From: a virus
Taxonomy: Duplodnaviria; Heunggongvirae; Uroviricota; Caudoviricetes
Virus record (IMG/VR): IMGVR_UViG_2718218136_000008
Location: 1-48,802 of that record
Reading direction: 5' to 3' (one strand)
Length of the DNA stretch: 48,802 bases
Shown here: positions 1,668 through 47,989 of the stretch, piece after piece
Numbering within the stretch: position 1 is the first letter of the stretch
Layout: each line of letters begins with the position of its first letter
Program-made: the position numbers and the translations under genes
Notes under the pieces: generated by a model
Database searches by the model: none
Told to the model about the DNA's origin: nothing
What the model saw: only the letters and a program-made list of their open reading frames with translations

Positions 1668-2765
1668 ATGGCGTACTATAACATAGAGAAACGACTAAAA
1701 TCCGATGGCACACCACGCTATCGCTGTAATGTGATTATCAAAGAAAAAGGTGTTATCACTTACAGGGAAAGCAAAACATTCCCTAAACATGCTCATGCCA
1801 AAACATGGGGCGCACAGAAAGTGATGGAATTAGATCTATATGGCATTCCATCATCAAATGCTGTTGACGGACTTACAGTCCGTGACTTACTACACAAATA
1901 TTTAAATGACCCAAATGCCGGAGGTAAAGCAGGCCGTACTAAAAGATATGTGCTGGAACTGCTTATGGATAGTGACATCTCCGCGATCAAACTATCTGAA
2001 CTGACAGAAAATGACGTAATTGAACATTGCAGGCTAAGAAACAACGCTGGTGCAGGCCCAGCAACAGTCAGCCACGATGTTAGTTATCTTGGCAGTGTTC
2101 TGGATGCGGCAAAACCTGTATACGGAATCAATTACACATCAAACCCGGCGAAAAGCGCTCGTCCATATCTACTTAAACTCGGTTTGATTGGTAAATCAAA
2201 CCGTCGTAATCGTAGACCAGCATCTGATGAACTGAACATGCTCATTGAAGGCCTTCAACAACGATCTACTCATAAATGCTCAAAAATTCCGTTCGTTGAT
2301 ATCCTCAAATTTTCTGTGTGGTCCTGTATGCGAATCGGAGAAGTATGCCGGTTACGATGGGAAGATCTCGACCAGGAACAAAAATCTATACTAGTAAGAG
2401 ACAGGAAAGATCCACGTAAAAAGGAAGGCAACCATATGAAAGTTGCCTTGCTTGGGGAAGCCTGGGATATCGTCCAGCGACAACCCAAAAAATCAGAATT
2501 CATTTTTCCATATAACAGCACTTCTGTTACCGCAGGATTTCAGAGGGTAAGAAGCAAATTAGGTATTAAAGATCTGAGATACCATGATTTGCGTAGAGAA
2601 GGGGCAAGTCGCTTATTTGAGGCTGGTTTTAGTATTGAGGAAGTCGCTCAGGTTACAGGGCATCGTTCATTAAACGTGCTATGGCAGGTATATACCGAAC
2701 TGTATCCGAAATCTTTACATAATCGTTTTGAAGAACTCCAAAGGAGCAGAAATAAGACCTCTTGA
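1668..2765 (+). CDS. int: tyrosine-type integrase (dusA-targeting)
   Basis: 365-aa ORF with C-terminal tyrosine recombinase region (RYHDLRREGASR...HRSLNVLWQVY); GAGG RBS; adjacent to att site. Confidence 0.9.
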   Translation: MAYYNIEKRLKSDGTPRYRCNVIIKEKGVITYRESKTFPKHAHAKTWGAQKVMELDLYGIPSSNAVDGLTVRDLLHKYLNDPNAGGKAGRTKRYVLELLMDSDISAIKLSELTENDVIEHCRLRNNAGAGPATVSHDVSYLGSVLDAAKPVYGINYTSNPAKSARPYLLKLGLIGKSNRRNRRPASDELNMLIEGLQQRSTHKCSKIPFVDILKFSVWSCMRIGEVCRLRWEDLDQEQKSILVRDRKDPRKKEGNHMKVALLGEAWDIVQRQPKKSEFIFPYNSTSVTAGFQRVRSKLGIKDLRYHDLRREGASRLFEAGFSIEEVAQVTGHRSLNVLWQVYTELYPKSLHNRFEELQRSRNKTS

Positions 2766-2793
2766 CACTGTTTATCCATACAGTTAAAAATAA

Positions 2794-2813
2794 TACTGTA
2801 TACAAATACAGTG
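2794..2813. promoter_or_regulatory. LexA (SOS) box overlapping the dinI-like promoter
   Basis: TACTGTATACAAATACAGTG fits CTGT-N8-ACAG; TTGACA at 2762..2767 upstream. Confidence 0.5.
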
Positions 2814-2825
2814 TAGGGGACTTTT

Positions 2826-3074
2826 ATGCGTATTGAAATCTGCATAGCCAAAGAAAAAATGACTAAAATGCCAACCGGTGCTGTGGATGCGTTAAAGGAA
2901 GAATTAACCCGACGCATCAGTAAACGTTATGACGATGTAGAAGTGATCGTAAAAGCCACCAGCAACGATGGCCTTTCTGTTACGCGCACCGCTGATAAAG
3001 ATTCAGCTAAAACTTTTGTTCAGGAGACTCTGAAAGATACCTGGGAGTCTGCTGACGAGTGGTTTGTTCATTAA
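2826..3074 (+). CDS. dinI: DinI-family DNA-damage-inducible protein
   Basis: 82-aa [13 protein letters not shown]...[16 protein letters not shown], resembles DinI (~81 aa) especially at the C-terminus; LexA box upstream; GGGGA RBS. Confidence 0.8.
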
Positions 3075-3105
3075 GTTCATCATCTCTGGACACCATTCAC
3101 TTGTA

Positions 3106-3135
3106 TTGACTTTAAGATCATTAAATTGTAATAAT
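3106..3135 (+). promoter_or_regulatory. sigma70-like promoter for the leader/SLATT-like/RT operon
   Basis: TTGACT (3106..3111), 18-bp spacer, AATAAT (3130..3135); predicted start just before GGGGCAGG at 3146. Confidence 0.4.
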
Positions 3136-3142
3136 TCAAAGG

Positions 3143-3296
3143 GATGGGGCAGGTTTTTCCTCTTGCGCATGCAAGGGCGGCTCTGATAATGAACAGTAAT
3201 ATTTTACTGTTGAGCTTATGCTCACTGATCCTGCCGGGCAGGATGTTCAACGGTTCCAATATATCCTGCCCCTTCCGCTTTTAAAAAGGATCTTTT
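3143..3296 (+). ncRNA. structured 5' leader / candidate non-coding RNA of the RT module
   Basis: GGGGCAGG (3146..3153) is the inverted repeat of CCTGCCCC (3265..3272); hairpins at 3164..3177, 3192..3211 (8-bp stem), 3211..3222; palindrome ATCCTGCC-G-GGCAGGAT at 3228..3244; no ORF. Confidence 0.3.
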
Positions 3297-3848
3297 ATGC
3301 ATGACAATATTTGGTTTACATATAAAGCACGTATCCAAGCGCACCATCGACTAGAATGGCTTGAAAAACACTCTCAATTTATCCTCGTTTGGTATGCTAT
3401 ATTGAGTGCGGTACTTTCAATTGTAACGTTGCGATTTCCAAAGGTTCTAGGAGATAATACAGATGTCGTTGCGGCGATACTTTCAGTGGCTCTACTGGGT
3501 ATTTCTCTGATCGTATCTAACCTAGATTTTCGTGGTCGAGCAATAGCCATGAGAAGGAATTATATTGCACTACAGCGACTCTATTTTGACATTACCACCA
3601 GTCAACAGTTATCTCTTGAACAGAAAGAAAAATATTTTAATTTGCTCAATGAGGTTGAGAATCACCGTGACATAGATGATAAAATTTCAAGGGTAACTCA
3701 AGTTGGACTTAAGACGAGGATCCCCACACAAAAAGAAAAAATAATTGTTATTTTATGGATATTACTTCGAATATTTATTACTGCCGCACTTTATATACTC
3801 CCATTAATATATCTTTGGATTGACTATGACTGCAAGCAGAATTTTTAA
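3297..3848 (+). CDS. small membrane protein, SLATT-like (N-terminal helix, two TM helices, helical region, C-terminal hydrophobic helix)
   Basis: 183-aa ORF, AAGGA RBS; hydrophobic segments FILVWYAILSAVLSIVTL, VVAAILSVALLGISLIVSNL, IIVILWILLRIFITAALYILPLIYLWI; 3' end overlaps the RT gene by 23 nt; low GC. Confidence 0.6.
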   Translation: MHDNIWFTYKARIQAHHRLEWLEKHSQFILVWYAILSAVLSIVTLRFPKVLGDNTDVVAAILSVALLGISLIVSNLDFRGRAIAMRRNYIALQRLYFDITTSQQLSLEQKEKYFNLLNEVENHRDIDDKISRVTQVGLKTRIPTQKEKIIVILWILLRIFITAALYILPLIYLWIDYDCKQNF

Positions 3849-5196
3849 AAAGTCATTCTCGAAAAAAAATCTTCTAAAAGTATACTCTGAAAAAATCAAA
3901 GAATCAGGAGCGATTGGCATAGATCGGATTCGCCCATCAAAACTTGATTTGACAATAAAAAATGAGATCACTTTCATTTTTGAAAAGGTTAATTCTGGCA
4001 ATTACAAATTTACAGCATATAAAGAAAAATTAATATCTAAAGGCGCTAACTCTACACCCAGACAGATTTCCATACCAACTGCTAGGGACAGAATTACTCT
4101 TAGAGCTCTCTGTGAATGCCTTACGGAAATATATCCTAAGTCCAGATTAAAACTACCACATACAGTAATTGACTCATTGAAAGAAGCATTAAACAACAGT
4201 CTATATGCTGAATATGCAAAAATAGATCTTAAAAGTTTCTATCCTTCAATTGAACATAAATTGATAATTAATGCAATAAAAAATAAAATTAGAAAAAAAG
4301 AAATTAGACAGTTAATAACATCATCATTAATCGTGCCTACTGTAAGTGGAACCACAGGAAGCAAAGGTATCCCTAATAATACCAGAGGAGTACCTCAGGG
4401 ATTAGCGATATCAAACATTTTAGCTGAAATATCACTATCTAATTTCGATGATGAAATCAATAAAATGCATGACATATGGTACATGCGATACGTTGATGAC
4501 ATTCTTATTTTAACACCAAAATATCAAGCAACAAAAATAGCTTCTCATATCATTGATAAGCTTCAATCATTAAATTTAAACCCACATCCATTAAATGAAG
4601 AGAACTCAAAATCCAAAGTAGGCAGCTTGGATGAAAGTTTCAACTTTTTGGGCTACCACATAAAAAATCGAGAATTATTGATAAAACATGAGAGCATTCT
4701 TAGATTTGAGTCATCCTTAGCAAAAATTTTTACTGCATATAGACACGCTCTACTACAAGCTAAAAATAAGCGCGATAAAGAACGAGCTGTTGCATATTGT
4801 CAGTGGAAACTAAATCTTAGAATTACGGGATGTGTGTTTGAAGGTAAACGATTGGGATGGGTATCGTACTTCTCACAAATAACGTCAACAGCTCAACTTC
4901 GAGCTGTTAATCATACGATCAATAATCTTATCCGCCGATTCGGCCTTTCATCAGAAATAAAACCAAAGTCTTTGATTAAAACTTTCTATGAACTCCGCAG
5001 GGGTAGAGCGGAGACTTTTAAATACATACCTAACTTTGACAATCTACATATATCTCAGAAACGAGAAATTGTTTCTATGTGGATAGGGAAAGAGAATGAA
5101 AAAAAACTTAGCAATAGTGAAATAGAGAGAAAATTTAAATTTAAAATTGCGAAATCAGTAAAAGAGCTTGAAGAGGACATTTCAGGGATATCATAG
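3826..5196 (+). CDS. reverse transcriptase (retron/UG-DRT-like prokaryotic RT)
   Basis: 456 aa from ATG 3826; RT motifs RQISIPTARDRITLRAL, DLKSFYPSI, GVPQGLAISNILAEISL, YMRYVDDILIL (YVDD), FNFLGYHI; ~180-aa C-terminal extension; low GC. Confidence 0.85.
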   Translation: MTASRIFKKSFSKKNLLKVYSEKIKESGAIGIDRIRPSKLDLTIKNEITFIFEKVNSGNYKFTAYKEKLISKGANSTPRQISIPTARDRITLRALCECLTEIYPKSRLKLPHTVIDSLKEALNNSLYAEYAKIDLKSFYPSIEHKLIINAIKNKIRKKEIRQLITSSLIVPTVSGTTGSKGIPNNTRGVPQGLAISNILAEISLSNFDDEINKMHDIWYMRYVDDILILTPKYQATKIASHIIDKLQSLNLNPHPLNEENSKSKVGSLDESFNFLGYHIKNRELLIKHESILRFESSLAKIFTAYRHALLQAKNKRDKERAVAYCQWKLNLRITGCVFEGKRLGWVSYFSQITSTAQLRAVNHTINNLIRRFGLSSEIKPKSLIKTFYELRRGRAETFKYIPNFDNLHISQKREIVSMWIGKENEKKLSNSEIERKFKFKIAKSVKELEEDISGIS

Positions 5197-5249
5197 ATAT
5201 GTAATCCATTAAATCCTTTATATATAAAGCAATAAACACACTATTTAAA

Positions 5250-5294
5250 TTCACAAATCAGCCGCAGTATCCTGCCATGACAAGTTGCTGCGGC
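5250..5294 (-). terminator. hairpin downstream of tfa (late-operon terminator candidate)
   Basis: GCCGCAG/CTGCGGC stem (5261..5267 / 5288..5294) with 20-nt loop, followed on the minus strand by a U-rich tract. Confidence 0.3.
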
Positions 5295-5308
5295 ATATCA
5301 CAAAACGA

Positions 5309-5893
5309 TTACTCCATAACAGGGACCGCAGGCCACTCAATATCAGGTGCAGTTGATGTATCAACACGGTTCAGCAACACCCGATACTTCTTCCAGGCTT
5401 CCAGCAACGAGTTTTCTTCCTCCGTTGCGATCTCCAGATCTACAGCATCCTGAAGTGGCGCTATATGCTCACTGGCTACCTGCATCAGGCTGTTTTTTGT
5501 TTCTTCCGCCTCCCGGATCCGGAACAGTTTTTCTGCTTCCGTATCCTTCACCCAGGCTGTGCCGTTCCACTTCTGAAACTCCCCTTCCGGGGATAACCAG
5601 GTAACATTTTCCGGTAACGGACCGAGTTCAGAAATAAATAACGCGTCCCCTGACGCTACGTCATAAACCGTTTTACCCCGATGGTCTTCAACGAGATGCC
5701 ACGATGCCTCATCACTGTTGAAAACAGCCACAAAGCCAGCCGGAATATCTGGCGGTGCAATATAGGTACTGTTTGCTGGCAGACCTGTATGAGGCGGAAT
5801 ATATGCGTCACCTTCACCAATAAATTCATTAGTTCCGGTCAGCAGATTATAAATTTTTATGGTCCGTGGTTGTTCACTCATTCTGAATGCCAT
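5309..5893 (-). CDS. tfa: tail fiber assembly protein
   Basis: 194-aa [21 protein letters not shown]..., closely matches recalled lambda Tfa; TAATG overlap with stf stop. Confidence 0.9.
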
Positions 5894-22061: not shown

Positions 22062-22147
22062 AACTGTCTCCGCACAGCCCCGTTCAGGGGCTGATTTCAG
22101 GTACAAAAAAAGCCCTTACGGGCCATCAGAGTTGTTGTCTGCGACGT

Positions 22148-30944: not shown

Positions 30945-31997
30945 TTATTTCCCCACCAGCTCGTTTATCTCTTTCACTGTCTGATTAAACCGCTCTGACT
31001 CAAGCTCAACACCTAAGGCCCGACGCCCCAGCGCCATTGCTGCTTTTATTGTGGAACCGGATCCCATAAAAAAATCAGCAACCAGATCACCTGGTCGACT
31101 ACTGGCATTGATTATTTGCCTGAGCATATCCGCCGGTTTCTCACACGGATGTTTCCCCGGGTAGAACTGAACGGGTTTATGCATCCAGACATCGGTATAA
31201 GGCACGGAGACTGATACGGAGAAATAGCGCCGGAGAGATTTAAACTCATCCAGCAATTCAGAATATTTGCGATTCAGTGAATCATAAGATGCCACCAGCT
31301 GGTGGTGTGGTTGTTCCAGTTGTTGTTCCTGAAACTTCTCTGCCGCTATACGGGAAAACAGTGCCTGTAACTTCCGATAGTCAGCCTCATTCGGCAACTG
31401 CCACTGACTGGCACCAAACCAGTGGGAAACCATATTTTTCTTACCTGTGGCTTCGGCAATTTGTTTTGCCGTTATACCCAGTTCGGCACGAGCATCCCTG
31501 AAATACGATATCAGCGGTGCCATTATGTGCTGTTTGAGTTCCCTTTCTTTTGCCGCATAGCCGTCACTTTTGCCGCGATATGGCCCCTGGTAATGTTCAG
31601 CAAACAGAACGCGCTCTGTGGCAGGAAAATATGCGCGCAGACTTTCTTTATTACACCCATTCCAACGTCCGGACGGCTTCGCCCAGATGATATGGTTAAG
31701 CACGTTGAAACGTTCACGCATCATGATCTCAATATCAGATGCCAGGCGATGCCCACAGAACAGGTAAAGGCTTCCGGCAGGTTTTAACACCCGCCAGAAC
31801 TGGGCCAGACAGTGGTCCAGCCACTTAAGGTAATCTTCGTCCCCTTTCCACTGATTGTCCCAGCCGTTGGGTTTCACCTTGAAGTACGGCGGATCGGTAA
31901 CAATCAGGTCAATGGAATCATCAGGCAGGGACTGAATAAAATGCAGGCAATCAGCGTTGATTAAATCAACACTGTTTATTTTTACAGTATTTTTCAT
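30945..31997 (-). CDS. DNA N6-adenine/N4-cytosine methyltransferase (DPPY motif), orphan
   Basis: 350-aa ORF with IVTDPPYF catalytic motif and C-terminal AdoMet-binding FFMGSGST; no adjacent restriction gene. Confidence 0.85.
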
Positions 31998-32375: not shown

Positions 32376-32473
32376 GACATACCAATAACTCTTGTCTAAA
32401 AAGCCAGCAAGATAAAAGGTCAGTATTCACGACCACCAGCGTGTTTACTGTACTGCACCAAGTTTACAGGTAC

Positions 32474-32497
32474 AAAAAAACCGCTCAGCGGCGGGTT
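32474..32497 (-). terminator. intrinsic terminator (possible tR'-like late terminator)
   Basis: Minus-strand CCGCCGCTGAGCGG hairpin followed by T7; promoter-like TTGGAG-N17-TACAAT upstream on the minus strand (~32545..32575). Confidence 0.5.
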
Positions 32498-47334: not shown

Positions 47335-47588
47335 ATAAGAAACCTCAAAGATAGTGAACTTTGTAATTATTCTCGATACTTCATGGGTTGCTTCATCACC
47401 AACATGAGCTTCTTATGGTGTGCCCACTTAGGCCTAAGCAACTAGTTACCTTGTTTGTCAAGTTTATAGCTGGCTTTAATCATGGTCAATTGAAGTGATG
47501 AGCAAATGATGCTTTCTAAGAATAACAGGTTCCCAATAGGCTCCCACAAAGTGTATAACTAGTTGTTTTTCAAAAACGGTACATCCTA

Positions 47589-47596
47589 TCGAGCAT
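47589..47596. other. attR core TCGAGCAT
   Basis: Identical to 1476..1483. Confidence 0.6.
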
Positions 47597-47692
47597 TGGT
47601 GCAACGCTAAACCGACCACTCCAGTGAACGTCAGTTTTTTCAGGCATTGCGCTGGTTTGGTTGATTTTTTGCATTTCAGAATTACCGTGCAT
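47589..47692 (-). pseudogene. dusA: displaced native 5' end of dusA
   Basis: Minus-strand reading from ATG 47692 encodes MHGNSEMQKINQTSAMPEKTDVHWSGRFSVAPMLD then diverges at the core. Confidence 0.65.
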
Positions 47693-47989
47693 TTTCAAAT
47701 GTAGAGATTATTTTATCGATATATCATTGGGTTATGTTATTCAGCATCACTGTTCAGGAGGCTCAATAGCGGGGTACTATACCATAACAACAGGAAGCGC
47801 CTGTCTCATTGCAAAAGAAAATTGAGATCAAATCAAGGCATGAAGCTCTCACGAAGTGATGGAAATAATCTTATTAGCCGTTAGCCTTGTTAAGGACAAT
47901 GATAAACAATCCAGGTTCGACGATAAATAAAAAATCACACATTAAACTCCGGTGATATCTCTTCCTGCTAATGGCACTGATAGAAGAAA

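Follow-up and report, generated by a model that had tools for sequence, protein, structure and literature searches.

The DNA analysed here, the 48,802 nucleotides of the IMG/VR virus record IMGVR_UViG_2718218136_000008 (the window), contains an interval at 3106–3296 between a dinI-like gene and a gene for a membrane protein. A preliminary description, made from the sequence alone, had seen in it a highly structured leader with nested CCTGCC/GGCAGG repeats, either the template of a reverse transcriptase (RT) or a regulatory RNA, which raises the question of what this interval encodes. We conclude that the region 3142–3278 almost certainly encodes the non-coding RNA (ncRNA) of an anti-phage defence system of the DRT10 kind (UG17-A, Eco_3-type); this RNA, the SLATT_5 membrane protein and the UG17 RT together are the DRT10 defence system. 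Directly observed were the family membership of both proteins, the near-identity of the locus to Eco_3_DRT10, a conserved RNA structure that covaries, and an A-B-A' pattern in the template loop. The element is already known, since experiments have been published on Eco_3_DRT10, an E. coli allele with 98 % identity; new is solely a natural variant of the template that is commoner than the studied allele, together with notes on its genomic context.

Identification of a DRT10 locus

Downstream of the interval lies a gene for a SLATT_5 two-transmembrane effector of 183 amino acids (3297–3848, + strand; Pfam SLATT_5, 1.3e-28; PADLOC RTasSLATT, 1.5e-56), followed on the same strand by the gene for an RT of 456 amino acids when read from the ATG at 3826 (3826–5196; PADLOC RT_UG17, 1.1e-158); the mechanically called open reading frame (ORF) starts from a TTG at 3820 and comprises 458 residues. 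The RT aligns to the UG17 profile with residues 3–458 on positions 1–429 of 429 and a score of 526.6 bits, about 400 bits ahead of all other PADLOC models, which score 130 bits or less. Both its catalytic YVDD motif (residues 222–225) and its C-terminal serine S456 (...SGIS) are invariant in an alignment of 14 homologues. The two genes overlap by 23 nt, with SLATT directly upstream of the RT as in the UG17-A architecture, and from the end of the ncRNA it is 18 nt to the SLATT start codon, with the RT encoded 550 nt downstream.

The reference for such a locus is Eco_3_DRT10, described by Tang et al. (bioRxiv 10.1101/2025.10.16.682844), from whom all statements in this paragraph are taken. A 137-nt ncRNA upstream of SLATT was found there to be bound by the RT in RNA immunoprecipitation sequencing (RIP-seq), and it is composed of one large basal stem and four smaller stem-loops. 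Defence needs the ncRNA, SLATT and an active RT, and is impaired when any of the stem-loops is scrambled. From a loop segment, CAAUGAUUC at positions 107–115, the RT produces kilobase-long single-stranded (GAATCATTG)n, a complementary DNA (cDNA) that was seen in vivo and in vitro, RNA and RT alone being sufficient in vitro. Only this 9-nt segment is copied, and no reads extend across the ncRNA as expected of an msd. Between rounds the DNA pairs anew with CAAU (116–119) further downstream, which gives an A-B-A' pattern. The C-terminal serine S456 serves as the primer, the S456A variant showing loss of function, and the cDNA has a protein-protected 5' end, is insensitive to RNase and depends on S456. 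Scrambling of stem-loop 5 (SL5) alone completely abolished the repeat products, and SL5 was proposed as the 5' boundary of the template. The mutations C116G and A117U in A' abolished both repeat synthesis and defence; fourth-base changes in A were tolerated, a homology of three bases was enough, and the B segment was freely variable.

A second UG17-A system, from Escherichia sp. E3659 and with a 143-nt RNA and a 7-nt repeat, was reported by Sanchez-Nieto et al. (bioRxiv 10.64898/2026.04.29.721553). Pairing within SL1 is required for its ncRNA to accumulate, the ncRNA acts in trans and accumulates independently of SLATT and RT, and modulators of UG17-A activation are the exonuclease SbcB and an SSB-like protein of the phage (10.64898/2026.04.29.721553). 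RT-dependent tandem-repeat cDNA linked to protein is by now on record for Eco_3, Eco_1, Eco_2, six other homologues and E3659 (10.1101/2025.10.16.682844; 10.64898/2026.04.29.721553).

The window was linked to Eco_3 through accession OKX54664 and the locus of E. coli IHE3034. According to the methods of Tang et al. the Eco_3_DRT10 RT is NCBI OKX54664, a record that starts two codons early, such that its S458 corresponds to S456 (10.1101/2025.10.16.682844). The pair TTG 3820/ATG 3826 in the window reproduces this two-residue start correction of OKX54664.1. By exact-sequence look-up OKX54664.1 is the RT of the IHE3034 locus, and the window RT is ANK04665.1 of an O25b:H4 strain; the window protein is moreover listed in the UG17 table of Tang et al. 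Between window and IHE3034/Eco_3 the RT differs in 10 of 456 residues (97.8 % identical), the SLATT protein in 4 of 183, and the intergenic region in 4 of 222 bases (98.2 % identical). One of these four substitutions lies outside the RNA (3141), another converts a C-G pair of SL2 to U-G and thus keeps it (3166), and the remaining two fall into the template, where position 110 is C and not U, and position 112 is G and not A. IHE3034 accordingly reads CAATGATTC at the position of the window template, and CAATGATTCCAAT where the window has CAACGGTTCCAAT.

Setting the 5' end of the RNA at 3142 puts all published landmarks on the right bases. The tract containing U15 is found at 3154–3158 and U61–U64 at 3202–3205 (in the paper, 'drop-off after U64'), the positions of U110, C116, A117 and U119 fit, as does the length of 137 nt, and the loop between SL5 and the 3' arm of SL1 has the 20 nt that go with the paper's 'twenty substitutions'. 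With this start the ncRNA would by homology extend over 3142–3278, with the A-B template at 3248–3256 and A' at 3257–3260; its boundaries are thus those of the RIP-seq-defined Eco_3_DRT10 ncRNA, transferred to the + strand of the window.

Fold and covariation of the RNA

The region 3142–3278 reaches a minimum free energy (MFE) of -57.2 kcal/mol, as compared to -38.9 ± 4.0 kcal/mol for dinucleotide shuffles (z = -4.58), and none of 200 shuffles was as stable. Its MFE architecture, a basal stem closing the four smaller stem-loops SL2 to SL5, is the one that characterises DRT10 ncRNAs. The basal stem SL1 is formed by the 5' arm GGAUGGGGCAGG (3142–3153) and the 3' arm CCUGCCCCUUCC (3265–3276), followed by GCUUUU, and the two constitute a 12-nt inverted repeat with 92 % complementarity. 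The shorter repeat that had been noted before, GGGGCAGG at 3146–3153 and CCTGCCCC at 3265–3272, is present and forms part of this longer one, and the three hairpins it was said to enclose are found at about 3158–3180, 3192–3211 and 3212–3223 as SL2, SL3 and SL4.

All elements between the two arms are read on the + strand. SL2, UCCUCUUGC ... GCAAGGG-CG, consists of nine pairs (3158–3180) and is joined to SL3 by a nearly invariant single-stranded junction, (C)UCUGAUAAUG (3181–3191; alignment columns 45–55), which may be a contact site of the RT. The inverted repeat AACAGUAA-UAUU-UUACUGUU makes up SL3 (3192–3211), and GAGC-UUAU-GCUC makes up SL4 (3212–3223). The palindrome ATCCTGCC-G-GGCAGGAT, correctly placed by the preliminary description at 3228–3244, is SL5, in RNA AUCCUGCC-G-GGCAGGAU, and stands directly 5' of the template loop GUUCAACGGUUCCAAUAUAU, whose 20 nt (3245–3264) are unpaired in the MFE structure as well as in the consensus structure.

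For a comparative analysis, 44 loci with relatives of the RT were gathered from one genome per species and the SLATT genes were located in them. We aligned 29 upstream regions, those of the window, of two E. coli alleles and of 26 other species with RTs 50–83 % identical, including the genera Xenorhabdus, Photorhabdus, Buttiauxella, Pseudomonas, Stutzerimonas, Stenotrophomonas and Bordetella. Without a prior structure, RNAalifold returned the same five helices with 35 pairs, 18 of which show changes on both sides. Standard pairs are formed in 97.2 % of all cells, but only in 51–55 % when the 3' partners are slid by one to three columns, and the covariation score of 0.345, compared to 0.10–0.13 after sliding, was reached by none of 500 column shuffles. 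Folding and covariance analysis across homologous loci, the check that had been proposed for this region, thus both speak for a conserved RNA structure.

The signal is distributed over the individual helices. In SL1, 9 of 11 aligned pairs carry changes on both sides with 95.7 % of cells paired; in SL2, where 96.4 % are paired, three of nine pairs are compensatory. Half of the six aligned pairs of SL3 are compensatory, at 100 % pairing. SL4 has two compensatory pairs out of four, with AU and GC in 11 sequences each at column pair 84–94, and the five aligned pairs of SL5 are formed in 100 % of cells. Among the single-stranded parts, (C)UCUGAUAAU and GAUGUUCAA are almost invariant, and so is GUUCAA in the template loop; a second (U)CAA follows the first at a distance of 9–11 nt in the loop 3' of SL5 in most of the loci.

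The opposite strand of 3142–3278 folds almost equally well (z = -4.9), since inverted repeats of any kind behave in this way. However, two U-G pairs of SL2, at alignment columns 21–44 and 24–40, are invariant, and this fixes the + strand; together with the orientation of the promoter, they led us to reject an RNA from the opposite strand. Further pairings within the RNA were considered and rejected. SL1 and SL5 share the words CCTGCC/GGCAGG, a peculiarity of the Escherichia and Xenorhabdus lineage, and therefore an alternative helix around the template, 3236–3244 with 3263–3271, can be drawn, which would account for the 'nested' repeats; across the alignment it is paired in 55 % of cells, as in shuffles, and has one compensatory pair. 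A 5-bp contact in the MFE structure between the junction (G38 G39, C42 U43 G44) and the template (C110–G112, C115–C116) was dropped, as it does not occur in the RNAalifold consensus; on inspection of the alignment, the template partner follows in only two of nine loci in which G44 has changed to A.

A covariance model built from the alignment has a single match in the window, at 3138–3288 on the + strand. It has no match among 17 searched distant UG17 loci (24–37 % RT identity, mostly alphaproteobacterial); according to a published statement, covariance models of these ncRNAs work within subtypes only (10.64898/2026.04.29.721553). Those of the distant loci that were folded showed a different structured RNA about 100–240 nt upstream of SLATT, with several inner hairpins and a basal stem such as GGTGGGCGG ... 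GCGCCCACC (loci L032–L036, L038–L040, L042 and L044–L046).

Predicted template and product

In the window the template loop reads C107 A108 A109 C110 G111 G112 U113 U114 C115, followed by C116 A117 A118 U119. The predicted A-B template is thus CAACGGUUC, or CAA(C)-GGUUC (3248–3256, + strand), in the same register as the mapped template of Eco_3, and the predicted realignment segment A', CAAU at 3257–3260, is identical to that of Eco_3. CAA-CGGUUC-CAA at 3248–3259, starting 3 nt past SL5, forms an A-B-A' pattern. Copying from position 115 to 107 is predicted to give the cDNA unit 5'-GAACCGTTG-3', the 3' end of which, GTTG, would re-pair with CAAU through three Watson-Crick pairs and one G-U pair. 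As Eco_3 tolerates changes in the fourth base of A, a homology of three bases and a variable B segment, the window allele should be active and make (GAACCGTTG)n.

By analogy with Eco_3, we propose the following course of events. Transcription would start at about 3142 from the putative promoter at 3106–3135, and the RNA of some 137 nt would fold with SL1 closing a multi-branched core of the hairpins SL2 to SL5. The RT would bind this RNA, prime from its own S456 and copy the 9-nt segment CAACGGUUC. At a boundary set by SL5 the nascent DNA would dissociate, its 3' end would re-pair with CAA(U) at 3257–3260 and the template would be copied again in a telomerase-like manner, such that a long single strand of tandem repeats, (GAACCGTTG)n, bound covalently to the RT, would be produced. 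This cDNA would presumably control the SLATT effector and bring about abortive infection, and its level would depend on phage factors as well as on the host's exonuclease SbcB.

A number of points weigh against this assignment or its details. For the window allele, expression, cDNA and defence would all follow by transfer from Eco_3, and the two key papers, Tang et al. and Sanchez-Nieto et al., are preprints that disagree on whether the cDNA rises or falls upon infection. The 3' end of the RNA is likewise placed by homology, and SL1 is followed by a short U-tract (4 U) that other genera have not conserved. The template, finally, differs from the studied one in two positions. This reduces the pairing of A with A' from four Watson-Crick pairs to three and a G-U pair, and the exchange A112G creates a competing repeat GUUC...GUUC with a period of 8 (3245–3248 and 3253–3256) that is absent from the studied allele.

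This second candidate, GUUC-AACG-GUUC, overlaps the CAA...CAA repeat with its period of 9, and the exact repeat unit of the window allele is therefore a prediction. Were the RT able to read as far as SL5, the register could be a different one. We consider it unlikely that the window allele makes a product of different register or lower precision, for instance (CGTTGAAC)n or mixed junctions. If it did, nature would have provided in this allele a test of the way SL5 defines the boundary, and of whether the repeat sequence evolves under diversifying selection.

Alternative explanations

Flanking inverted repeats around internal stem-loops had first suggested the a1/a2 organisation of a retron, in which the enclosed stretch of about 127 nt would be reverse-transcribed from a 2'-5' branch into multicopy single-stranded DNA (msDNA). 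The arrangement of a flanking 12-nt inverted repeat that encloses hairpins upstream of an effector-RT pair does recall an msr-msd, and several database entries call homologous RTs 'retron-type'. The RT is, however, UG17 at 526.6 bits against at most 130 bits for any other PADLOC model, and no Rfam family, retron msr included, matches 3075–3296 at E ≤ 10. A scan of 2700–5400 with Rfam 15 at this threshold gave only a chance match to MEG8_1 (E = 1.7), although the coverage of retrons in Rfam is incomplete, and a scan of the whole window at the gathering threshold gave nothing at the ncRNA region. The flanking repeat behaves as the basal stem SL1 of a compact multi-branch RNA that lacks a long msd hairpin, and in Eco_3 a 9-nt loop segment is copied rather than an msd of 127 nt: the cDNA is a 9-nt tandem repeat with a protein-protected 5' end, unaffected by RNase and dependent on S456, and reads of the msd kind across the ncRNA do not occur. 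A retron thus has next to no probability in our estimate. The idea of an RT template was nevertheless right in kind, as judged from the 98 %-identical Eco_3: this is a structured RNA that templates the adjacent RT and is made from its own promoter.

It is also very improbable that the region is a purely cis-acting leader, an attenuator or translational regulator of a toxic SLATT-RT operon that has no template function. The RNA does end only 18 nt before the SLATT gene begins, a GCUUUU comes after SL1, and 3136–3296 contains no other promoter-like site on the + strand, so that some attenuating side-effect is plausible. Yet the U-tract is short and missing in many homologues, and the conservation of five helices together with the single-stranded junctions goes beyond what an attenuator needs. 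In Eco_3 the RT binds the RNA, and RNA and RT alone yield cDNA in vitro, while in the UG17-A model the ncRNA is functional in trans and needs neither SLATT nor RT to accumulate. Equally remote as the retron is the suggestion that the CCTGCC/GGCAGG half-sites act in the DNA as operators for a repressor controlling the module. Four copies of the hexamer, in both orientations, do fall within 130 bp just downstream of the promoter, but the words are not conserved: other genera have GGGGTGGG/CCCACCCC, GAGGCAGG/CCTGCCTC or further words in their place, complementary in every case, and SL5 shrinks to CCC/GGG. That words change while pairing is kept is the signature of an RNA structure and not of a DNA-binding site; G-U pairs, moreover, are tolerated, which makes sense at the RNA level only, and the conserved module is devoid of a regulator gene. 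The ncRNA of a DRT10 system accounts for the repeats as helices.

Promoter, reading frames and the upstream gene

By pattern match, a promoter of the sigma-70 type precedes the ncRNA on the + strand at 3106–3135, with TTGACT as -35 element (3106–3111), a spacer of 18 nt and AATAAT as -10 element (3130–3135), together with a TG at 3127–3128. It agrees with the consensus in 10 of 12 positions and is the TTGACT-N18-AATAAT motif already named in the preliminary description. Among the 29 homologous loci, a TAnnnT hexamer ends 4–8 nt before the first pair of helix 1 in 24, and the other five have related hexamers in that place (AATAAT, CATACT, TATAAA). A pattern scan found no further promoter-like site on the + strand within 3136–3296, and the mRNA for SLATT and RT must therefore traverse the structured RNA. 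Neither did a pattern scan find a terminator on the + strand: SL1 is followed by a GC dinucleotide and then only 4 U, and the run of U is missing in many homologues.

The statement that there is no ORF in the interval holds in substance but not to the letter, as mechanically called ORFs do exist in 3106–3296, such as one of 46 amino acids at 3144–3284. Reading these as small proteins was rejected, because neither start codon nor frame is conserved and the substitutions compensate one another in the RNA. In most homologous loci the ATG of the 46-residue frame is replaced by GAAGG or similar, and insertions and deletions in the hairpin loops break the frame.

Upstream of the ncRNA lies the dinI-like gene (2826–3074). 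Two LexA-type boxes (CTGT-N8-ACAG) at 2768–2783 and 2796–2811 overlap its promoter (TTGACA at 2762), and no terminator-like site is present between its stop codon (3074) and the ncRNA promoter (3106). In view of both, SOS-induced read-through from dinI into the DRT10 cassette is conceivable. Linkage of dinI to the cassette was seen in E. coli loci only.

Distribution and prophage context

The 222-nt intergenic region is present in 187 of 5,426 complete E. coli genomes, at 95–100 % identity and always on the chromosome, and in none of the 187 carriers is there an annotated feature under it. With a 48-nt probe over SL5, the template and the 3' arm of SL1, alleles could be told apart for 189 copies. 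The window-type allele, with template CAACGGUUC, accounts for 81 copies that are identical across the probe. An MS6192-type allele (74 copies) has the same template CAACGGUUC, as read from the MS6192 locus alone, and one change in the SL5 loop, while the Eco_3/IHE3034-type allele with template CAAUGAUUC is found in 34 copies. Three or more natural alleles thus exist, and the studied template is a minority form.

Upstream of the dinI-like gene are dusA (542–1579, - strand) and a gene for a tyrosine integrase (1668–2765), and the remainder of the window is that of a lambdoid prophage, with genes for tail fibre, J, tape measure, portal, large terminase and a CI-like repressor. A direct repeat of 117 nt at 1466–1582 and 47579–47695 (81 % identical), made up of two copies of the dusA 5' end, provides attL and attR of this prophage, which is about 46 kb long and takes up most of the window. 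Bounded by the dusA repeat and accompanied by lambdoid genes, the RNA-SLATT-RT cassette is cargo of this prophage, adjoining the attachment site at the left end with the integrase. The same cassette is found in prophages at dusA (window, AR434) and beside prfC (IHE3034, MS6192); a locus identical to that of the window is carried, for instance, by E. coli AR434 (NZ_CP029122.1) and by an O25b:H4 strain (NZ_CP015085.1). Among the sequenced phages of INPHARED the cassette is not present, and only the flanks with dinI and the tail fibre match. The RNA gene travels as cargo between the dinI and tail-fibre genes of lambdoid prophages, with at least two integration sites.

The interval from 3075 to about 5286, between dinI and the gene for tail-fibre assembly, behaves like a slot for cargo: phage 2H10 has a DNA invertase there instead of the DRT10 cassette, and from about 5286 onwards the window is again homologous to sequenced phages. 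Within the tail-fibre-assembly gene (5309–5893), a full-length match to Rfam IS009 was found on the - strand at 5352–5550 (224.6 bits; gathering score 117). Further into the prophage, a third LexA-like box, CTGTTTATTTTTACAG at 31972–31987, coincides with the start of a phage DNA methyltransferase gene (30945–31997, - strand). At 22095–22123 and 32464–32492 lies a 29-nt direct repeat (79 % identical) in which a run of A leads into a short GC-rich hairpin, GGTACAAAAAAAGCCCTTACGGGC; it looks like a pair of related - strand terminators within the prophage.

Comparison with known systems

With Eco_3_DRT10 the window locus shares the order ncRNA-SLATT-RT, the 137-nt frame, the five stem-loops, the 20-nt loop, CAAU as A', the YVDD motif and S456. 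It differs in its predicted unit, GAACCGTTG in place of GAATCATTG, in an A-A' homology that is weaker by one base, in the competing GUUC repeat, and in its location in a prophage at dusA, where the Eco_3-type copy of IHE3034 lies beside prfC. As the DRT10 story has been published, including for the same E. coli lineage, the addition made by the window is modest; it is of use for annotation and for picking natural template variants to test, and is not a discovery. The UG17-A system of E3659 has the same tripartite ncRNA-SLATT-RT module, a basal SL1 with stem-loops inside it, a short repeat flanking the template in its loop and a tandem-repeat cDNA, but belongs to another lineage, with an RNA of 143 nt, AGTAATA as its 7-nt repeat and ACUUAUUACU as its template; nothing in the window corresponds to the published E3659 probe sequence.

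Further afield, the ncRNA of DRT9 (UG28) is likewise a structured RNA upstream of a UG-class RT, with a template loop closed by a long stem and a protein-primed repetitive DNA as product, and a similarity between the predicted structures of DRT9 and DRT10 is pointed out in the DRT10 paper itself (10.1101/2025.10.16.682844). In DRT9, however, a conserved poly-U template yields poly-dA with priming from tyrosine, whereas DRT10 uses a variable 9-mer, the A-B-A' pattern and serine priming. The msr-msd of retrons resembles the DRT10 ncRNA in the flanking inverted repeat and the inner hairpins beside an RT and an effector gene; its RT belongs to another clade, and DRT10 differs in having no branched msDNA, in copying 9 nt only and in its mode of priming.

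Telomerase RNA works alike, although the DRT10 ncRNA is not a member of that family. In both, the enzyme copies a short internal template over and over, a helix on the 5' side of the template forms its boundary, and an alignment segment identical to the start of the template resets the product. The DRT10 RNA, on the other hand, is bacterial, 137 nt long and without sequence homology to telomerase RNAs, and its product is primed on the enzyme itself and not on a chromosome end and has an antiviral function. The DRT10 ncRNAs programme a telomerase-like repeat synthesis by a compact bacterial RT, and they have been used in arguments for a bacterial origin of telomerase.

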